Source: Haliotis cracherodii
Lineage: Eukaryota
Reading direction: 5' to 3'
DNA: 64,000 bases
Assembly (NCBI RefSeq): GCF_022045235.1
Contig: NW_027266265.1
Location: 29,450,001-29,514,000 of the forward strand
This document shows positions 102 through 52,685 of this stretch, piece by piece. Position numbers and translations under genes: made by a program. The notes beneath the pieces are model-generated. The model searched no databases and was not told where the DNA came from. It worked only from the letters and a program-made list of their open reading frames with translations. How positions within the stretch are numbered: position 1 is the stretch's first letter; each line of letters begins with the position of its first letter.

Positions 102-3100
102 CTTGAAACGGCTCTTGGGCGTTGGTGTTGCTGTAGTCCACCAAGACGTCGTTGAAGGTTGACGTTGTGTTGTATTTGAATGAGGGGTGGAAATACACGT
201 TCTTCACTTGACGGACTTGTTCCTGCGGAACGTTATTGTACACTTCAGGGATGGAGATGTTGTATTCGCCCAAAACAACAATCATTCGATCCTGATATGT
301 TTCATCTGTGTCTCGTCTTCCAACACTAGAAACAGCAATAGATTAGCATAAGTAAACTACGTTTATAATGAACACGCCTATACCGAACTCACGGATATAA
401 CCTATTTTAAGTCCCGACCATTTGTTGTATATATGCTGTATATATGCTTATAACGAACTACGGTTATTACGAACTAAAATTAGTGCTCCTTTCAAGTTCG
501 TTATAACCGTAGTTTACTGTATAAGCAAGATAAGGATATTCCGTACATTACAAGAATGGTACATGTAGTTCTATTTTCAACATTTCTTTTACTTTCTCTA
601 TGTACAGTATGTGAGTGGCGGGTACTATTATCGGATATGCTTACACTTATCGCGAACACCTGGTGTCATCACTAGTTTCATTGACCCATATAATTTTCAC
701 AGATCGTTTGCCTTTTGCGCCCAAAGGAATCTGTTTCGGCAGATCATATATAAGTTTGGCTCACTTCTCTGAAGTTCATTTTACTGTGGGATGTTAATCA
801 ACTGAACAGGCATTACTAAGATACCTCGGTTGGTCAGGCTCGCTGACTTGGTTGATGCATGTCATCGTATCCCATTTGCGTTTTTTCGATGCCTGCTGTA
901 AAAGGCGGCTATGTTTGTCTTAAAAGTCGACTAACGGGATCGGGTGGTCAGGCTCGCTGACTTGGTTAATGCATGTCATAGATCCCTATTACGTGGATCG
1001 ATGCTCATGATATCGATCCCTGGATTGTCTGGTCCAGACTCGATTATTTACAGACCGCCGTCATATAGCTGGAATATTGCTGAATGCGGCGTTAAACAAC
1101 CAACCAACCAACCGAACCAACATACCTCATAACTGCTGCACAATCTGATAGAACCCAGTTCTTCTGTATAAGAACTCCGCCAGCATTATGAAGTGAGTTA
1201 GCCAGGGTCTTGGGAAGATTGGGTCCATTCATGCGTCGAAGGGATGCTTGCCATGGGGCTTGCTTTGGTTTGTCATCCTTGGAAAAGGCAAGTCGAGCAG
1301 TTGCGCCCCAAACACCACAGTTCCCCTCGTTCCCACAAGTGGTGGTCGCTATATAGAAGTACATTCTTCATTAAAGGTGCTCAATGTTCTTGCTGTTCAT
1401 CACTTGCAATACTTTTTCACTTACCTTTTACATGTTTGTCTGTTGAATATGTTTGTAATTGTGATATCACCTACAAGCTTGGGTTGACAGAAAATTGTAG
1501 ATTCTTTGTGGCATTTTATTTCCTTTCCTTTGTTTGTTTCATTTTTTGTTGTTTAACGCCGCACTCAGCAATATTCCAGCTATATGACAGCGGTCTGTAA
1601 TAATTCGAGACCAGACAATCCAGTGATGGACATCGATCCATACATTTGGGATACGATGACATGCATCAATCAATTGAGCGAGCCTGACCACCCGATCCCG
1701 TTAGTCGCCTCTAACGACAATATATTTTGTACGCGGTCAGTACGTGTTTAATTGGTTCAGATAGTCATGTACCAGTCCATGATACTCATGATACTATATT
1801 CGCTAAAAATTAATTATAATCTTTTATTACCAAAGACCTGGAAACTAGGAAACTAGGAAATGCAATTTTAGATAGGTATAGCCAAACAATGGGATTTGGG
1901 GTTATTATCGACAAAGAATAATTCTTTAAACCTTTTTGTCAAAAATTAAATATTCACCAACCGTCCAATCGATACAAATCTATACAAATGGAGTCTACTG
2001 AATATAAGTTAACAAAATATACATCAATCATCAAGTGTAATGGAGATTATTTAAATGAGCTTTGGTCAAGCTGTCATATTTTATTTGTATGAATACATTG
2101 TTGTGCAAAACCGTGAAAATAAACACATTCTGAAAATATTACAAACGGTTTTGTTGTTGATGTGAAACAGATCTAGTACACACTACGATGGATGTAATGA
2201 GCTCTGTTGCTTGGCGGATCGGGTGTCATCGTCACCGTCAAGGTACTGCCATCATTAATGGTCCCTATCTTATTCATGAGATACCTGAATTCCATTGAAA
2301 TAACACTAACTTTGATTTATGATGCAAATGATATTTACAAAACACTATATTTTTCACAAATAACATCACCCAAGTGATGAAAGTATGCTAAAGCAAGTAC
2401 TCACGTGTTCCAGTGCAACATTTGAATCCAGTTTGGCAAGCTGCATAATTGAAAAAAGTATCGCTCTGTTGTACAGTTCCGCTTGGACATCCGCCTTCAC
2501 GACAGACGCCATCACGATAAACAAAGCCACACACTGAAATGTATATACATATATATAGTGTATTGATGTTAAAGAAACCGGGATATTCATCATGACTATC
2601 TAATGTTGGAATACAAATTATATATTGTATTATGACGTATTTGATTATCTTATATGACAAAAGATATAATTATATTATGTTACAAAGGATACACTTGAGC
2701 ATCTTATGTTACAAAGTACATAATTTATTATCTATAATTTCAAACTAAGGAAGTACTTCATTACGTTAGTTTACAAAAGACGTTCTTGATTATCTTATGT
2801 TACAAAGGACATAATTGATTATCTAATGTTACAAAGGAAGAACATGATTACGTTTTTGGTACAAATGACGTACTTGATTATCTTATGTTACAAAGGAAGG
2901 ACTAGATTATGTAATGTTTCAAAGGAAGTACAGTAAACTACGATTTTAACGAACTCAAAAGGACTACTAATTTTAGTTCGTTATAACCGTATTTCGTTAT
3001 ACGCATAGATACAGCACATAAACACATTTTATTATATCCGTGAGTTGGTTATAATCGTGTTCGTTATAAACGTATTTCACTGTACTTGATTAAGTTATGT

Positions 3101-4739
3101 TACAAATGACGTTCTTGATTATCTTCTGTTACAGAAGAAGTACTTGATTACCCTAGTTTACAAAGGACGTACTTGGTTATGTAATGTTACAAAGGACATA
3201 ATTGATTATCTCATTTGACAAAGGATAATAAATGATACATGTTGGTTCGGATCCATGATAAATCGTTATTAACCATGGTCTGTCATGGTCGTGTCCTTGA
3301 TTGATTAAGAATTAAATACACTCAGGTTATTTTTATGATATAAAAACTTGTACATTTGGGATCATACAGATTTAAGATGTCCACAAGGCGCGCTGCTTTC
3401 TTAAGCGTCATGTGGTTCTTTCAAAGCAGTGTGTGCTTAACGGGTGGGCCTCATTCACAGACATCACGTTCTTACACACAGGGTTGTTGCTTACTGATGC
3501 GAGAAGGTACATACATATGCTCAATGCATGTAGAAGGATGCTGATATTGTCATGTATATTCGCAATACAAAAACACAGTAAACGACATTCTCTTTGAAAG
3601 TTCAAGCAGCTGACCTATAATGTATCGTGCTTATCGACAAGGATTTGACTGTATAGCTACTTCCTTGTATATTTTATTCAAGGGTAAGCTAGAGCAGTTG
3701 CTATCCTTTACATTACTTTATTTTTAAGCTTACTTCAGTTTCTAGATTGGGTACATTCTTCTTTCAATGGTATATGAATGGTATATCTTTTTTTCAAAGT
3801 TAACCTAACAGGTAATTCAGGTTTGAACATGAACTGTTGTTTACGAGCTTTTCAAATGAACTGAAATTCTTAGATCTATTTCAATCAGGGTTGCATATGT
3901 TTTGCAATGACGTGTCTTCAAAACTCATGTAAAAATCCCAAATCCTGAAGCAAAATCAAGGGACCAGATTGATTAATGTTAAGTCACTGCACGTGGTATT
4001 CTGAACGAATTTCATCTATGTTTTGTACTGCTCGTTATAATTTGCGACATCGCTCCAACAATGTTGACAGTCGCATAAATATATTCCTCGCCTCGCAGTA
4101 TGACACTGTTATTGCCATCGATTTGAGCCAACGGACACATTTATATAAAAATAAATGTGTTCGGATATTAGGGGAATGCGAGCTTATTATATAACACCAT
4201 AGGGCGTCATGGGGGAGATAATTTGTTGGAAAGCAACGATGTCGACCTCACCATTTGGAAGTTATTTGTAAACAAAGAACATAGTTGCTTACTTTCCACA
4301 CCACGGTACAATAGATACAAGAACTCCATCGCGAATAGATGTACACGTCGTGTACCCGCTTAACTCTACACCCTGACCTCACCGGAAGATCATATTTGTT
4401 AACAAATAATGAACGTGACAAAACATTTACTCAATGTTACATTAATTATCATATTTCGGTAATGTAAAATATTAACATGAAATAGTCCATAAAACAACTG
4501 TGACAATGATTTAAGAGGATTGCATGGGACCCCGAAGCGGAACAACCTTCAAAATTGGACGCGTCAAACATCAAATCTAAGTGTATGAATAGAAAGGATT
4601 CAATAGAAAAGAGTCACATGCTATTTTTTAAAATCTGTTCCTTGGTAATATTGAAATATGTTCATATCTCACCAGTAAAATCTACTGCGAAGGTTCCGTG
4701 TACGGCCAAGGCAAGTGTTATAAGTTTGATCGCCGCCAT
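102..4739 (-). CDS. SPH-0: secreted clip/beta-defensin-like six-Cys module plus non-catalytic trypsin-like (S1A) domain; 3' part runs off the window start
   Basis: Minus-strand exons 4673-4739 (signal MAAIKLITLALAVHGTFAVDFT), 2405-2533 (VCGFVYRDGVCREGGCPSGTVQQSDTFFNYAACQTGFKCC), 1126-1348 (CG..AR|LAFS..APWQASL..HNAGGVLIQKNWVLSDCAAV) and 102-325 (IVVLGEYN..EQVRQVKNVYFHPSF). All junctions are GT-AG with compatible phases 1,1,2. Trypsin motifs PWQASL, GGVLI..WVL, VLGEYN and HP are present, but TAAHC is replaced by SDCAAV. Confidence 0.85.
351..519. mobile_element. TA-flanked MITE (Tc1/mariner-pogo type)
   Basis: Terminal inverted repeats (c)agtaaactacg.ttataa.gaac / gttcgttataaccgtagtttactg with TA on both sides. 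Confidence 0.8.
826..1120 (+). mobile_element. SINE-like family A (partial copy plus 5'-truncated copy)
   Basis: gcgactaacgggatcgggtggtcaggctcgctgacttgg..gctggaatattgc..gcggcgttaaa + (CAAC)n tail; about ten copies in the window. Confidence 0.8.
1543..1720 (-). mobile_element. SINE-like family A
   Basis: Reverse complement of the family A 3' half. Confidence 0.8.
2590..3240. repeat. Degenerate 30-bp minisatellite
   Basis: Unit approximately tgttacaaaggacgtacttgattatctta; lies in SPH-0 intron 1. Confidence 0.8.
2931..3082. mobile_element. Same MITE inserted into a minisatellite
   Basis: Splits one repeat unit as aaaggaagTA[MITE]TActtgatt, duplicating TA. Confidence 0.8.
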
Positions 4740-4793: not shown

Positions 4794-5479
4794 TCTGTAC
4801 TATTCATTTTGTCGAGTTGGTAAACATTTGAGGACACTATGAATACACGGCTTCCATTACTGGGGTTGTCACACCCAAGTTAAACATCCATACAAAGGAT
4901 GGTGATTGGCAGGAGAAGATACATTGGCCGAGCAACAGGGCGAGGTGATGGGACAAAAACTGAATAGGCTGATAGGACCACCAGTCATAAACGCTGTTGA
5001 CATAACACAGCCTTACTGGCTCATAAGATGGAGTTAACGTGTGAATATGCTGATGCATTGTATTGACTACTCGTAGATTCGATAAAGAATGTGTGACGTG
5101 ACTTTATTTACGCCTACGTCATTGCCTTTACAACCTAGAAGAAATATGTTTCTGGCAATGGGTTCTTAGCAAACAAAAAATCAATTGAAATAGGGCGAAT
5201 AATTTTGTTTTGTTCTGAATATATACACATGGAAATAAGTTAAGCAACACCTGTATATTCTCAGACCGGGGAACTTTAATGAACTAGTGCATGAGATGTG
5301 TAAAGGATTTCCAAACCAAATAAATTATCTAGTGGAAAGAAAGGGTTGAGGAGGAACATAGCCAAGATTACCATGAAATAATGTGGGTGTTTTTAGATGT
5401 TACAGATTTGGAAAATGACTTTATTTCAAACCAAAAATTACCAATGTCACTTTTGTTGCACAGACTAAAGTGTCACTAC

Positions 5480-5737
5480 CATACACACTTTTGGTTCACG
5501 GAACTGAAGAACAATGTCCTGCAAGTCCAAATATTGACTTACCATCAGTATCTTGTGTAACCTCCCTGAACTCAAACAACTGCTTCAAGGTGCTCCTCAA
5601 TCCTTGGATCAATCTCTGGATTTGATTCTGAGGAATTCTGTCCCATTTCTCATGATCATGCAAAAAGGAGTCAATTCATTGAGCGTCGGGACAGGTGGGT
5701 CTCTTTGTCGAACACGACGGTCTAAAATGGGACAGAA
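5480..5737 (-). mobile_element. Tc1-like transposase C-terminal remnant
   Basis: Minus strand reads LDRRVRQRDPPVPTLNEL..EKWDRIPQNQIQRLI, matching the Tc1 DDE C-terminal motif; frameshifted. Confidence 0.65.
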
Positions 5738-8225
5738 CTCTTTCTTTTCATTAAATATTTTTTACATTTCGAGCACTAGTTCATTAACGTTGCTCAGTCT
5801 GAGAATACACGGGTGTTGCTTAACTAATTTCCATGAGTAGTATCAGTCACCATATATTTCAATTAATATCACAACTCAAACAATCAAAGAAGCATATTTA
5901 ATTCAATATATGTAGCAATCTGATCTTTCCATCTTTACGCATACACATATAACCTCTTCAGTTGCAGAATTCTATTAGTCTCCACCAGTCTTCCTTGTTT
6001 GGGTGTCTGCATGTACACGTCATGTACCCGTGTTATATTACCTTACCCCGGTTGCTGGGTCAAGTATATTTGCCCTACTATTGTGCGCGATGGCCTGGGG
6101 AGAGGGGTGGTTCATACAACTCCCTCCAGTAAATAGCGTGAATCACGGTTTCTTTGAAAGATTCAATGCAGCATTTGCAGAAGAGAAACTAGGTGAGATG
6201 AGCGTGAAAAGAACGTTAGTTCATCACTTACGATCCAACAGCAATATTTCCCTCATTGTTACATTATGTTCATGTCTGAAATAGAATGAACAGAGTTAGT
6301 GAGGTCGGTTTGACACCGCTTCAACCGTCATGTCAATTTGATATACCACGGGTCCGGTATGGTCCTTCTACAACTAGAATCAGGGCATCTCTGAAGAGTG
6401 AATTTCGGCACCTCGGGCGACTGGGCTACCCTTGAACCCAAAAGTACACATGACTTAAACTTCATTGAAAAAAGTGTTTTATTTGAATCTTTGACTTCAT
6501 AAACTTCAAAGAAAACGAAAGATTGACAATTCGAAAGATTACTCTTGCCGAGCTCAACATGCGAAAACAAGTACCCTCGGACCCGACCCCTTAAGGTGTT
6601 GCCCGGTCCATCACCCATCCAAGTGATACAAAACCCAGCTATTACAGGCATACACAAACATTAATTGCTATGTAGAAATTTAAAACGTCAATGCCAGATG
6701 ATAACCATTATCGATTTTCTAATTTAACAGATTCCAAAATAGATAAGAGTGGTGAAACTGTTGTGAATGGGTTACGGAAAGTCAGTGATGACACCAAGTG
6801 TTCGCAAGAAGGTTAAGTCCTGGTATCAGATGAATATACAGAGTTATACCGAAAATGTAATGGGACCGTGTGAATATACTATGTATGAACTGTGTGTACA
6901 TTTTGAATGCATTTACAGAATATTGCTCTGTGGAACGGCTTCTGCACACGAAGTAGACATCTGGAATTCTAATTACGAAGTTGTTTCATTTTGTTTATTC
7001 AAAGGGACCATGCACCTTTACCAATTATTATCAACCAAACAAATAAACACACAAGGACATATCGTAAAAGGATTCCCATGTAGAAATAACATATACATAA
7101 CATAATTTTTAAACACACCAAAAAACATAACTGGTTCAACCTGGTTTTTTATATAATTTGTTAAAAACCGAGAACATCTGTTCCATAATCATGAGAAATA
7201 TCTGCTAAATGCAGGGTCCATTGTTCAATTCCGACTGATTCAAAAGCATGTGTATATGGATAATATGAAAAAGGTTTCATCAGTCCGAACTGAGATATTT
7301 CTGAAAAAACCTATTCGCCTGATTTATTGTGTAATGGTAGAATTGAACATTAAATAGACATACAATGCGTGGAGAGAAATTTATCATGTCCACCAAGATG
7401 AACATTTGAAACTAGTGTATGTTTATTTCATAACGCAGTTACTCAAAATATTCAGACGTACCTGGGTTGATGTCAACCTCCTGTTCACATTGCACCAAGC
7501 CAGGCCACACACATGCACCAAGCCAGATCACATAGACATGCTTCAAGCTAGTCCACACACATGCACCAAACCCATACATCGTAGTAGAATACACACGTAT
7601 ACGCATATACATCTTAACACTGTTAGGGAAGAATGATATACGAGACTCAGTACCTTCTTCTGTGTAGTCATCCTGTTGTGTACATGAAATACGTGCCTGA
7701 GAACAATAGATAGTTTCCGACACAAGCATGACAACTCTGCTTTTTCCCATGGTCACATGTCCGGTTGACAAATACATTGTGTTGATTTTGTATTTGGTAT
7801 AATATATACAATAAGGTCCTTAATTATGGGTGTTTCTTATAGAAGTGCTTGTGACACTGAGTGCTGAAAATATGAAATTGTCTATTTACAGTGTTCAGAC
7901 TTTTGAAATAATTTACTCATGTGGAATTACATATGTTTCTGGTGTAGTACTGTTTCAGACCTGTTAAGAGTGACCTCGTAGCATTCATGACTTATACAAT
8001 AGACACACAGGAACAGCTATGACAACGTGCTGTCTGACGCCAACTAAAGTGTTCGCAGAATTAAGACGGCGGAAACAATATTTAAACTCACTGAATTCGC
8101 AGACAAAGAACCTTTGTGCGTTTTGTTGAAAATATAATTGAAACAGTTAAGAAGAAAGAGAGCTGAAATTAAATGCATGGAAACGGACATGTTATTATGT
8201 CACGTAATGTGTTAAAAAGATGGTG

Positions 8226-8928: not shown

Positions 8929-11900
8929 ATGAAATATCTGCTACTACTGGCGATGTGTGTGTACGTTGTCGGGGCCAGAGCCAGAGACAGAAGCTTAAAC
9001 TTCAAACAACGGACATTTCTGATGGCACTCGATGAAAGGAAGCTGACCAGGGACCTCCGATCGTGTTGGTTGGACAGCACTGGTCATTGCTGTTCCAACC
9101 ACATCGCCGGCTGCCGTTACTACAGAAGATACCAAAAGAAATACAGGTCCAAGAACAGGTCAAGCAAAACACGTGAGTATGGAGCGTTGTGTGGACAGAC
9201 ACGGACCAAAATCTAAGAATTGTTTGTTTGTTGTTTAACGCCGCACACAATAAGACAATCCAGTTATTGACATCATGAGCATCAATTTACGCAATTGGGA
9301 TACGATGACATGCATCAACCAAGTCAGCGAGCCTGACCACCCGATCCCGTTGGTGTCATCCTACGACAAGCATAGCCGCCTCCTTGGGTTGTTGAAGACC
9401 ACCTCTACCCCAGATCTTCAAGGGGCCGATAACTGAATACCGGCAAGGGAATGAATGTTATTTTATGTCTCAGTCATCAATATTCCAGCTTTATCACGGT
9501 GGCATCTGGACCATCTGGGATTGTCGACCAGTGAATGATTGCACGTTTAACAACCCAGGGTATGATGGCCCACAATCAGCCAGGTCACACATTGTCATGG
9601 ATTATTGCCCGTATTTTCAGTCAATGGTTTTCCTAGTCCAGGGTCGTTGCAATTTCTCGTAACATCAATCACCTGTATGTCTGTTCCATACTCGATTATT
9701 AACATAGGTGGACATGTTTTAACAAAGTTTACAAAAAACAGACGAACATACGTATCGTCTGATCCACATCATTAGTAGTGATATAGAACTTTGTTACAGT
9801 AACAAAAATGTTCTGATGTATAGAACTTTACCTGATCAGTTAGATCAAGCCTGCTGGTACAGTATTTATTTTCCCCCGTCAAATTTGGAAGCATTGGTAC
9901 ATATTTCAACTGGCTGGAGAAGCAACTTAACATTATATATGACGTTGGCATAAGTTTGAGTGAAACATGTGAACACAGTATTTTTCGCTACTGTAATTGA
10001 CTGTTTGGGTTTTGAGAGTTGTTTGGTTCAATAACTAACGCGTTCATGTTTCGTTTCAGGAAATAACATCTTCTTTTTCAATACTATGCCTTATTATCCT
10101 GGCAACTACTGGTACCATTCTTGCAACGTACAGTGTCTCTGTACCTCATACCACGCATCGTGTTCACATGCTACGACTGCTGCCGCTACTACAACCACAA
10201 CAACAACGACTACTACAAGTACAACCACCACTACTACAACAACGACCACAACGACAACCACCACACCAACTACAACTACAACCACAACGACTACTACCAC
10301 CACTACAACAACAACGGCTGCAGCTACGACAGCTGCGACTACAACGGCTGCGACTACGACGTCTGCGACCACTACATCTGCTACAACAACATCTGCTACA
10401 ACAACATCTGCTACAACAACATCTGCAACTACAACATCTGCAACTACAACATCTGCAACTACAACATCTGCAACTACAACATCTGCAACTACACCAACGA
10501 CATCCACTACTCCTACGACATCAACAACGGCAACCACATCCACTACGCCAACCACATCAACCACAGCGACGACGGTGGCAACAGCCGTGAGAACAAGATG
10601 TACGTACACTGTATACTTTCAATCCTATAGTTAAAGCTCAATGTCAAATGAAAGCATTAAACACTGACCCAGTGATTCACCTCTCTAATGTACAAAGTAG
10701 GTTCTTTCGGTCCTGCCAGGGTCTGCTTTCGTGGATTACAGAATTATCCGGATAATGAGCCACGATCTTCAGTATGGGTTTCATCAAAGGTATTAAACTC
10801 TGAACCGCTGTGGCAAGTCCTTGGGCTTAAAGCAGCGTTGAAGACAACCTTTCAATAGAGGTGCCAGTTTTCTAGAATACATTTTTGGTTGCTTATTGTC
10901 TATTCATTTTCATTCTTAGACTGTCCACGGGGAGTAACAACCGTGTCCAACATTGTCAGGATCATGAACGGACGACCCGTGAACAACTGCACAACATATC
11001 CCGGTGTTGTCACTCTAAAATCACCAAGAGGCGTCACATTGTGTTCTGGTATAGTCACATCAAGCACTACAGTCTCAATCCCCAACAACTGTGCCCAGCT
11101 TCTCATTGAACCGTAAGTGATAAACACATCTACATCTCTTTGAAAAACTCTCATATGTATCTGAAATAATGTCCTTTTATGCCTGTATCACAAACAGCTT
11201 TAGGCACCGTTAAATGCTTAGATTATGTATGACAAGATCAGCAAATAACCAATTCCATACAGCAACTGTTCTGTCAGCTTAAATTGTAGGCCGGACATTT
11301 TCTTCAATAGTACCAAGAGCAAAACGACCAGGAAAAGAAAATATAATCAATAAATTCAGTACATGAAAATCGGTCAGGAAATCACAGCTTCATCTAAAAT
11401 CACAATAATGAATACTTGTACCCATTTGTTTATACTACCGAACAGGCAATAATCTATGGAAACATTTCTTGGCCAGAATCGTCCAAATAATATGTAATCA
11501 GTTTGGCGCATCATGAAAGATTATTTCTACTAGTTATATAGTATTTTGCATTTGGCTCTTGTGATCCTGCACTACAGATCTATGTTCAACTTATGCATAC
11601 CTTCACTGTGCAGTATGCTGGGGTGTCCGTATGTTCTACCTAAATGTCACCTCGTGACATCGACATCCTGATTAGAATACTAGGTTTTCAGCAACCCATG
11701 CTTGCCGTAAAAGTCGACTATCCTTGTTCTAAGAGGCAACTAACGAGATCGTGTTCCACACTCGATTATTTACAGACCGCCGTCATGTAGCTAAGATATT
11801 TCTAATGGTGGCTTTAAACAACAAACAAACCAAACAATTATGCAGTATGCACATCTTACATGATATCTCATAGGCAGGTTTGCAAATGATGTACAAAGTA

Positions 11901-47780: not shown

Positions 47781-50700
47781 ATGAATTGCCTACCCATACT
47801 AGTCTGCCTATCACTGGCAGTGATGGTGAGTAGCGAATATCTCTCCATGGAGTATCAGTCAGAGAATTATGAAAGTGCTATGAGGGCTGAAAGTCAAGCT
47901 TCACTGCGACACTACAGGCCCCGCTACAGCTACGTCGACTACTCGGGAGACTGCTGCCGTAACGGTAACAACAACTGTGGATGGGCTCGATATTGTAAGT
48001 AATCAGTGCAATTATACATATATTATTACATACAATTCACGAAGTTTGTATAACGAGGTAACTGCTAAAGCCATGCTGATTTTTTCACCCCAAACAGGCC
48101 CCAATGCCAATAGTTTCTTTTCGCGAACACTTGGTATTATCACTGTTTGATAGTGGTTAAAGAACACATGCTCATGGTACAGTCGCAATCGTATAATGGA
48201 CTCGTTCAAGAAGGTGTTTATTGCTGTTAATTACGAATTAGTTTAACTCAGTGGCAAGAACATTTTGTGGTGAATCAAAGCAACGGACTAGTAATTCTCC
48301 TAGTATCACTCTAGAACACTCAAGAGAGCGAAAGGTCTGTGGTTCGATTACCAAGATATGATACTTGTTGTCACTCCGCGTAATACAGAAATTTCAAATA
48401 TTAAATGACAGGAATCAAAAACGGAATAACACCTTCAAATGTGCAAAATTGAGCTTCATCGACACTGTAAATGAAAATGTCTGTCCGAAATAGATGTACT
48501 GTGAACTGTGACACATGCATATTGCCAAGCTCAAATGTTTTGACGTCGTAATACTTTGCATGACGGCATATCTGTCAATCACAACTGAATAGGCCTCGTT
48601 AGCGTAAGCAGAGAAGTAATCAAACACATAATTTATGTTTTTTCGCTAATAAATATTAATCAAGTGCAATATTGAATGAATGATCTATTCATGTCGCCAT
48701 CTCAAATGCCATTTTCCCAAGTGGTGATACGCAACGAAAAGACCCATAAAGATCTGGCGAAGAATAGGTCTTCAGCAACCCATACTTGCCGTAAAATGCG
48801 ACTATGCTTGTCGTAAGAGGCGACTAACGGGATAGGGTGGTCAGGCTCGCTGACTTGGTTGATGCATGTCATCGATCCCAAATGCGTGGATTGATGCTCA
48901 TGATATCAAACACTGGATTGTCTGGTCCAGACTCGATTAATTACAGACCGCCGTCATAAAGCTGGAATATTGCTGAGTGCGGCGTTACACAACAAACCAA
49001 CAAACCATAAAAAGGCGTAAAAGGCAAACAAGTGATGGAAAATGTGTGAAGGCATCACGGAAATTCTGTAATAATACCACGTGTTTGCGAAAACGGTTAG
49101 CACATGTTTTATGTCCTGTTCTACCAATAGCACCCTCTCAATATGGTGCCAGTGAGTTAGGTGGTTCAACACTCCATGACTGTGAAGGTCATTGCATGGG
49201 AGAGAACAGCGCATCATGTTGCCAAGCCAGGGGCAAATTACTTTAAATGTTAAGCTGTTCACCATACACGTTCTGAAATGACTTAACCAGGACTTTGATG
49301 GTGATTCTTTGATTGAGAAGCTTATTTGTAATCTTTCTTTCCGTGAAAAATAACCCGATTCAAACAGATTGCCTCACACAGTCTCATTCGTTTTACAGTT
49401 GTCAGTCCAGTCGAATCCCTCGACGCACAAAACACACATTTTGCCGACAAACCCGCGTGTGAATATCGCGCGTCTTGTTTGTTTCAGATGCTTCCTCCTA
49501 CTATGGATCCCGGTACTCCAGGAGAGGCTGCTACTATTATAGACCACAAAGCTCTGTAGTATACTGCGGATGTGTGGGAGTACAACAATGTTCTCCAACA
49601 ACTGTTGCCGCTACAACCACTACTACAACAGCTGTTCCCACGACTACAACAGCTGCTCCCACTACTACAACAGCTGCACCCACTACCACTACCACTCCTA
49701 CAACTACTACTGCAGCTCCAACAACAACAGCCACAACACGATGTTAGTTAACATAAACATTTTATTGTTCTTTATTTATGTACCACCAGAACAACCGTGG
49801 AGATTCATGGGTAGAATTGTTTCCAGTAACCCTAATGTGCTGCTTACGGACCATCGTTATGATATGGATCGATGTTCATGCTTTCAGTCACTGGTTTGTG
49901 CTGCTTATCAGTTCAACCACTCCTGTGCCTGAATATTTACAGACATGATATAGCTGGAATATTGCTGATGGCGGCGTCAAGAACATACTCGCTGACTATT
50001 ATGTGTACAATTTCAGTTTGTCCAGCTGAGGCCTCAACCGCCCCAACCGCCACCACGAGGCTACTAAACGGCCTTGCTATCGCTGGATGCGATGAGTTCC
50101 CAGGGCTTGTAGCCATCCAAATCGGTGGAGCAACTGTATGCACTGGAGTCGTCACCAGTGGCACGACCCTGTCTATACCCAGCAACTGTGCTGCTTTTGC
50201 AAACGGAGCAGAGTAAGCTGGCTTTATGATACTCATTACTATTAAGATATTATTATTAATAGGAGGTAGTGTTTTATTGGTGTAATTGTTGGTAATAATA
50301 TCCTGCTCAATAGTACCATTTAGCATTACGCAAATTGCCAGAAGGGGAATCACAGTGGCATCCTCCTGATCTGCGCCAACAGATAAGGAGGTACCGAACC
50401 TTAGGCACCAAGATCAGTGGGGAGTCGAATAACTTATACTTGTGATGCAGGCACGACATTTCACATGCTAGGTTCGTTTATTTGACAATTTATCAAAATG
50501 GACAATGTTGCATTGCAAATACTTGATTACCTATCGTTATTGTCGATCTTCCCAAAAGATCCTCTCAAGCTCTACAATTTCGTCCCTATAGTTATAGTTA
50601 AGGATCATGTATGTCACAGCACAAATATGTGCCAGGTGTTTTTACGTATATAAATCCAATAGTACAACATGTATCATTGAAATGCAAACACTACAGGCGT

Positions 50701-52685
50701 CGTCGTAATTGTACCCTTGTTCGACGAGCCCCATTGGACGGTGGGACAGCCTACTGGTTAAAAGACAGGGTTTGATTCCCCACATGGGTACAATGTCTGA
50801 AGCCATCTTCTAGCTACCAACTCACTCACTCACAAAGAAAAGACAGCACTAAAATGTCACATTGTCCTCACGGGTAGTTTCCTTCGTTCACCCAGCTCTG
50901 ATCTGGTTTCGGACACATTTTGAAAAAGCAGCCAATTCAACTGTATATTTTTCTATTCGTAGTGTTGTGGCTCAGGATGGAACCGTTATCGCAACAGGCA
51001 TCACAGGTAAGAGACAGGTCACTTCACAATGATGTGTGTTTAGGTTTTCGTTTAAACACATTTTATTCACATGAAAAGAACATGATTTATCGCAAGTACG
51101 CTGTTCCTCTCCCCAGTATTTATATACATGATGGGTTGTACTTTTGTACATGTTGTGGTAGAATTTAGAAGAAGGGGAACAAATATTTTGTTTAAAAATG
51201 TACGTCTTACCTATTTTACCATGGACAGAAATATAAAGTTCCGCATTTCCAGATTGTATCAACTCAATGTACAGGTATCCTTATCTTTGGAAATTTCAGC
51301 AACCGCAGGAGGAGTAGGTGGGCCTGTTGAAGTGACCTTACCTACAGCAGTGACGTCAAACAGCTGCCCCGGCATCGCCTGTGTCTATTCCAGCACTATG
51401 GCAAGCGACATCCTCCTGGATACCTGCAAGGTTGCTGCTGCAGGATTCTCTGATAATGCCGGTGAGCAGCGATCTCAGAAGTGTGGAAGATGCGTAGTGA
51501 CGCATGTGTAAAAGTGGGCGTCAATGATGCAAGAAACGATCTCGGAATTTTAGACAGTGGGGTGAAGTGAAATGGGGTATAACATCGTGTTCAAGATTAT
51601 TTCACTTGCATGCACGTGTGCGTGTGGCTGTTTGTACTAGTCCGGATGTATGCCTGTGTTGTGCTGCTAGCACTCTGAGATAGAATGCCGCAGTTTAAGA
51701 TTGATTGCTTAGGCACATTATACTGATTCCTTGTTTTATCCCCACGGGTAAATATTTTGTAAGTTAGAGCTTCACCTCTGGAAGAAAGAGCCCCAAACTA
51801 TCTGGAAGACACAACACTTCATTGTCCCAAGTGATTATTTGTTTTAAACAATCTCATCTCCCCAACCCTCCAATCCCACCTACCCTGGAATATCATATGA
51901 TCAACCTCGCACGTGTCTTCTGCATCACAGGTACTTCAACTCCTGCCTTCGAGTACCTGGATATCCCCAGTCTGCAGCCAACGGACACGTGTCAAGCACT
52001 TCTTTCAGCCAGCCCCACTTCTGCTGTCTTTGACTTCACGAACACTGCCATCACATATAACTGCTTCATTAGTCCCAGTGGCTCTACATGTGCGGTATGT
52101 ATATTGTTTCCCTTATTTCCAGGCTGAATGGTTTCATAGTGAAGCCTCTATCTCGAAATGTTACTACCTTCTACACCTAAAACCCTTTAATTCTCATCGA
52201 AGGGGAGGGGCGGTTGGGTAGATCATTTGTTATTTTAAATGCGTAGTGTATTTGTATTTGTGTCTTTTGTTTACGTTACCACACATGTGACATCGGTGAC
52301 ATCCCGTTCACTCACACATCTGTGCCAGAAGACTATGAATTTGTTAGAGTAGGCTATAAGAACTCAATTGCAATAACAAGCATTGGCACGAAAGGTAAAG
52401 TTCCAATCAATTCTGAATACCAGGATTTGAATATAAAGGTCCGAACAAACTCTGCGATGCAATACGCTCAAAAATTCAACGTTAATACATAATTAGTGGT
52501 GTCGTTACTTCCAGGGCGACTTCGGTGGACCAATATCTTGCAGTCTAACGACTGGAGAACAGGTGGTTATTGGGCAGATCGAGAATGGTGACTGCACGGC
52601 CGGTTCTGCTGTAGGATTCTACAACCTTGAAGCAGCGAGTGTTCGTGTTCTTGCAACAAGCAGGGACCAAATCCAGCTCGGATAA
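47781..52685 (+). CDS. SPH-4: divergent paralog with Ser195 to Phe and a 21-nt microexon (408 aa)
   Basis: join(47781-47994,49131-49151,49488-49742,50017-50212,50963-51006,51300-51461,51931-52094,52515-52685) = 1227 nt, open, GT-AG. Signal MNCLPILVCLSLAVMVSS; RHYRPR..DYSGDCCRNGNNNC; TR|LLNG; CTGVVTSGTTLSIPSNC; STCA-GDFGGPISC; ends RDQIQLG*. Confidence 0.88.
48740..49005 (+). mobile_element. SINE-like family A, full length
   Basis: Matches the family consensus end to end. Further partial copies at about 21880-22035, 41838-41905 and 49800-49990. Confidence 0.82.
50385..50505 (-). mobile_element. Short remnant of the RLE-type element
   Basis: ggaggtaccgaaccttaggcac..ggggagtcg..gacatttc matches 36924-37000. 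Confidence 0.55.

Follow-up and report, generated by a model that had tools for sequence, protein, structure and literature searches.

A six-cysteine module of predicted defensin type in front of active and inactive trypsin-like proteins of Haliotis

A well-defined counterpart of the clip-protease cascades of arthropods is not known from molluscs. A gene on the minus strand of a 64,000-nucleotide stretch of Haliotis cracherodii DNA (hereafter the window; assembly GCF_022045235.1, contig NW_027266265.1, G000:C2:29450001-29514000) raises the question anew, because one of its exons encodes a six-cysteine module placed between a leader and a serine protease homolog (SPH) domain of S1A type. The cysteine pattern, which ends in an adjacent pair, is common to clip domains and beta-defensins. 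Which of the two is the module, and what might it do in front of a dead protease? As described below, it belongs to an entire cluster of protease genes, and most of its features lean towards the beta-/big-defensin type.

The gene and its protease-like domain

The complete gene comprises seven exons and encodes 366 amino acids (aa), three exons to the left of the window having been added to those within it. The coding part of exon 1 (4673..4739, minus strand) specifies a hydrophobic leader of 22 aa, judged by eye likely to be a signal peptide, and ends in a phase-1 donor; contig coverage of the exon extends to 4943, and one of its seven ATGs is open to the donor, giving phase 1 and the cysteine frame. 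Exon 2 (2405..2533, minus strand, 129 nt) is a phase 1-1 exon with an AG acceptor and a GT donor. It encodes the module, with Cys24, Cys33, Cys38, Cys55, Cys61 and Cys62 arranged as C-x8-C-x4-C-x16-C-x5-CC and a GxC at the second cysteine, as a preliminary description of the window had read it. Exon 3 (1126..1348, minus strand) carries a short linker with Cys70 and Cys76, an activation-type site (R84/L85, the slash marking the site) and the start of the S1A homolog, which continues in exon 4 (102..325, minus strand) and, left of the window, in exons 5 (L002:9451-9591), 6 (L002:8691-8839) and 7 (L002:7850-8017, including the stop).

Joints 4673>2533, 2405>1348 and 1126>325 are present in contigs of four of four sequencing runs (four studies), whose RNA nature is a guess rather than a matter of record, and all three introns are GT..AG on the minus strand. 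A loose contig end at 102 fits the start of exon 5; the later junctions were placed from splice signals and by comparison with P0002, a protein of H. rufescens. The deduced protein is identical to P0002 at 360 of 366 positions, and none of the six differences lies within the module. Among the joints listed for the four runs, which rank above 593 others, none skips exon 2405-2533, and the second open frame of this exon terminates within exon 3 and therefore cannot reach the protease domain. Thus, contig splicing and frame analysis rule out an artefact or an alternative frame as the source of the module; exon-skipping transcripts, which the preliminary description had named among the observations that would overturn it, were not seen among those joints. 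The annotated N-terminus of P0003, the H. rubra ortholog, starts out like the alternative reading of the module exon before entering the cysteine frame, which suggests that this record or allele carries a frameshift. The window also contains, at 5219-5760, a repeat lying under diverged contigs, one frame of which resembles what we take to be a Tc1-type transposase remnant.

The protease-like domain belongs to S1A (PF00089, E = 6e-26 for P0002), with all three triad residues replaced. In an alignment with hepsin and the cluster paralogs, and in chymotrypsin numbering, the substitutions are Cys42>Ala121, His57>Ala136, Cys58>Ala137, Asp102>Ala217 (exon 5) and Ser195>Phe314 (exon 7). The R84/LAFS site and the loss of His57 and of the Cys42-Cys58 pair had already been noticed within the window; retrieval of the remaining exons added the other two triad positions, and the anticipated architecture of a mollusc clip-like SPH (signal peptide, six-cysteine module, linker, dead S1A domain) holds for the whole protein. 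Retained are Arg84/Leu85, Asp194 (Asp313, exon 7) and the cysteines equivalent to pairs 1-122, 136-201, 168-182 and 191-220, Cys76 of the linker being the equivalent of chymotrypsin Cys1. P0002-P0004 keep both Arg/Leu and Asp194, and P0005 has Arg/Phe; retention of the site together with Asp194 suggests regulated cleavage. Two extra cysteines, Cys135 (exon 3, window 1126-1348) and Cys219 (exon 5, L002:9451-9591), occupy chymotrypsin positions 56 and 104; a disulfide between them might make up for the missing Cys42-Cys58 bridge, a pairing for which the full-length structure model (pLDDT 36) is too poor a guide.

A protease gene cluster with a shared module

The gene is part of a tandem cluster, which we counted over 564 kb and which may extend beyond. 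This region contains 33 His57-type exons, corresponding to 32 tandem S1A genes and one tandemly duplicated exon (near G000:C2:29309300 and 29312170). The catalytic triad is intact in eight of the 32 genes and not in the other 24. Using the module profile, we found 17 six-cysteine modules in the same region. Twelve genes account for 15 of them, each lying no more than 7 kb upstream; of the other two, one is an inverted duplicate and one has no assigned gene. The module thus caps 12 of the 32 genes, eleven of which encode pseudoproteases and one an intact trypsin-type enzyme. All 17 modules begin no more than three codons from a phase-1 acceptor, and a phase-1 donor stands at the protein boundary in 13 of the 16 that have a matching protein, none being listed for the other three. 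The frequency of the pattern is far above chance: a six-cysteine search pattern, slightly widened after the first matches had been seen, gave 19 matches in the 564 kb, 16 of them directly behind a phase-1 YAG acceptor, compared with 0-4 matches, and 0-1 behind such an acceptor, in ten local shuffles.

The intact module-bearing enzyme (L021:7585-7692, plus strand, and downstream; G000:C2:29257585-29265830) has an R/IIGG site, the triad His, Asp and Ser, Asp189 and a Thr-rich linker, and is the ortholog of P0011, in which the module is followed by a Thr linker and an intact trypsin-type domain. Database proteins also confirm the single-module architecture, a tandem double module (P0006, P0007 and P0014) and a module combined with TSP1 (P0009, P0012 and P0017). 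The automatic NCBI names of the intact paralog (XP_046333457.1, 'serine proteinase stubble-like') and of the ortholog of our gene (XP_046333434.1, 'phenoloxidase-activating factor 3-like') are similarity names only. Since the module is found throughout the cluster and also on an intact enzyme, the count and placement of modules rule out a fusion peculiar to one gene, as the preliminary description had proposed. Its further suggestion that the symmetric exon is suited to shuffling agrees with the duplication of the exon and with the TSP1 exons that lie behind it in some genes; the module is, however, a family-wide domain that was not inserted recently into our gene. In pairwise module scores, first-position modules of double-module genes group together and second-position modules likewise, as vertical inheritance predicts; no clear nearest paralog of our gene's module emerged from these scores.

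Several neighbouring features are worth recording. The inverted duplicate of the module exon is nearly identical to its partner (L035:6054-6158, minus strand, and L038:4121-4225, plus strand). SPH-1 to -4 (window ~9900-10700, 25400-26000, 35200-35800 and 49000-49900, plus strand) are without the six-cysteine module; in its place stands another small Cys module, rich in Tyr and Trp, with a long Thr/Ala stalk behind it. Two nearly identical protease-homolog genes (window 49998-52515 and G000:C2 ~29517000-29519600, plus strand) represent a recent tandem duplication. In a module-less homolog, a candidate exon that we presume to be of EGF type lies at G000:C2 ~29063300 (plus strand); the His57 exon follows 2.5 kb downstream, at 29065777.

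Outside the cluster, the module profile was compared with 1.84 billion representatives and produced seven matches at E <= 0.001, namely, three named Haliotis proteins, two unnamed read-throughs of module exons, and two unrelated repeats (P0020 and P0021) that were dropped. A word search returned 18 matches, 16 of them named Haliotis proteins and two unnamed. Neither search found a named relative outside Haliotis, although a 37-position profile is insensitive and the search therefore sets no bound on the range of the family. No description of the module family was found in the open literature, although its proteins could be listed in abalone proteome or transcriptome tables.

To follow the inactivation of these proteins, we analyzed an S1A tree built from 158 alignment columns and 43 sequences, 32 from the cluster genes and 11 from outgroups; a further outgroup without an exon match was left out. 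Two paralogs that likewise lack Cys42-Cys58 join our gene with support of 100/99, and SPH-1 to -4 belong to a different, starred group. In the best tree all 24 homologs form one clade (91/73), which is unstarred and open to long-branch attraction, and a topology constrained to unite the group of our gene with the intact enzymes is not rejected (p-AU 0.061). The tree thus neither establishes nor rejects the earlier proposal that the gene was inactivated separately from SPH-1 to -4. Cys42 and Cys58 are still present in SPH-1 to -4, and Ser195 in some of them, indicating that the later losses are lineage-specific; on the aligned sequences, only the loss of Cys42/Cys58 and that of Ser195 are demonstrably so.

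Defensin-type or clip-type module

The structure model of the module (pLDDT 83) gives weak but consistent matches to beta-defensins and big defensins, and its structural neighbours include defensins, helianthamide and a tick carboxypeptidase inhibitor. In the fold searches defensins ranked first, with weak scores, and no clip domain was present among the matches listed. The disulfides of beta-defensins connect cysteines 1-5, 2-4 and 3-6. A Pfam scan of 16 full proteins detected Trypsin, and TSP1 in some paralogs, with nothing on the module, no defensin family, and no CLIP at E <= 1. Among 14 modules searched separately, none matched CLIP profiles at E <= 10, and three gave weak matches to defensin profiles (best E = 0.005, below cut-offs), our gene's own module matching none. 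Genome scans added eight marginal matches (four to Defensin_big, two to CLIP and two to Defensin_beta_2), none of which looked family-like on inspection.

With beta- and big defensins (trans-defensins; PDB 6qbk, 1fd3 and 1ut3) the module shares six cysteines, the GxC (present in 11 of 16 modules), the terminal CC and a similarly compact spacing; a three-stranded beta-defensin fold is predicted for it, with weak structural matches. It also shares a phase-1 intron just before Cys1: such an intron 5' of the Cys-rich region is a feature of defensins (PMC7203481), and it occupies that position in all 17 modules. Unlike the C-terminal domain of big defensins and the free peptides of this type, the abalone module is N-terminal in a 366-aa protein, has a net charge of zero rather than being cationic, lacks the hydrophobic N-domain and remains below all Pfam cut-offs.

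With arthropod clip proteases and their homologs (CLIP, PF12032/PF18322; PPAF-II, CLIP-A) the abalone proteins share the whole layout: signal peptide, one or two six-cysteine modules with CC, linker, Cys-Gly, Arg activation site and S1A domain, with active and dead members side by side. The module could accordingly be a true but compact and divergent clip domain, the genes being molluscan CLIP-SP/SPH and the defensin-like model reflecting no more than a shortening of the fold. Its six cysteines, with Cys5 and Cys6 adjacent and N-terminal to the S1A domain, agree with the working definition in PMC11172050, which asks for a Cys doublet close to the protease domain and four Cys upstream. The 37 residues that separate Cys1 from Cys6, and the 16 that separate Cys3 from Cys4, also lie inside the group-1 ranges (37-55, and 8-17 or 22-26) given in PMC4676143, although most paralog modules are shorter (median span 35, both Cys included). 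A mollusc S1A-type protein with a clip domain has been reported from scallop, at least by the title of Zhu et al. 2007 (PMID 17046285) as cited in PMC6281612. Weighing against the defensin assignment, language-model (Atlas) features point to CLIP for both the whole protein and the module. On the other hand, the spacing Cys2-Cys3, a constant five residues in the 14 moth clip domains described in PMC4676143, is four in our gene's module and three in 10 of 16 modules, five occurring in only one. Together with the missing CLIP profile matches and the defensins returned by fold searches, this makes a compact clip domain rather unlikely in our view. The abalone gene further departs from arthropod clip homologs in having lost the entire triad and Cys42-Cys58, and has Phe where the insect cofactors in PMC10540698 have Gly at Ser195.

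Taken together, predicted fold, Cys spacing, weak Pfam/PDB hits and 5' intron position lean towards the beta-/big-defensin type over clip. The preliminary description had left the two joined and had proposed a fold search to separate them; the search supplied weak defensin matches and no clip domain among those listed, and the language-model features side with CLIP.

Possible role and origin of the module

On balance, we slightly favour the view that the gene encodes a cleavage-matured, non-catalytic cofactor or scaffold of an extracellular cascade, in which the module serves as a tethered docking domain of predicted defensin type. This view draws on the activation site and Asp194, both retained, on the linker cysteine and on the intact Asp189 enzyme bearing the same module. 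The protein is likely secreted. A trypsin-like protease, plausibly a module-bearing neighbour, would cleave after Arg84; Leu85 would then pair with Asp313 (Asp194), maturing the protease-like fold, and Cys76-Cys237 would keep the light chain attached. Because the light chain would be tethered in this way, the neutral module would stay in place and dock to partners or surfaces rather than being set free to act as an antimicrobial peptide. The proposed cleavage, partners, tissue and immune role are modelled on insect homologs (PMC10540698).

The same anatomy might serve a non-immune purpose, the protein having a binding or structural function in mucus, gut, gonad or extracellular matrix and the module mediating adhesion in a generic way, as the Thr-rich stalks or TSP1 domains of many paralogs would suit; we consider this unlikely, given that the cleavage site and Asp194 are kept in P0002-P0004 and that an intact enzyme of the same architecture resides in the cluster. 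That the module is a cargo defensin, freed by proteolysis from a dead carrier as an antimicrobial or enzyme-inhibitor peptide, is very improbable despite its structural neighbours and the cationic charge of several paralog modules (+2 to +4), since our gene's module is neutral, others reach -5, the Cys62-Cys76 linker is free of basic residues and the light chain would be held by Cys76.

As for the origin of the docking module, it may be an old domain of the cluster that has been passed on vertically. A single recruitment from a big-/beta-defensin-type exon is probable, with duplications and losses in sub-lineages thereafter. The cluster, with its intact enzyme and pseudoproteases sharing a regulatory six-cysteine domain missed by current annotation, is likely a snail counterpart of insect clip-protease cascades and offers a concrete candidate for such a system in a farmed genus. 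A predicted defensin fold in clip position, behind a defensin-type intron, also bears on the kinship of clip domains and beta-defensins. We tentatively suggest, as a possibility and not as the expected outcome, that a defensin exon was grafted onto trypsin-type zymogens to give the abalone cascade. If true, the abalone family would either have arrived at the 'clip protease' design independently or be a living link in the derivation of clip domains from trans-defensins.
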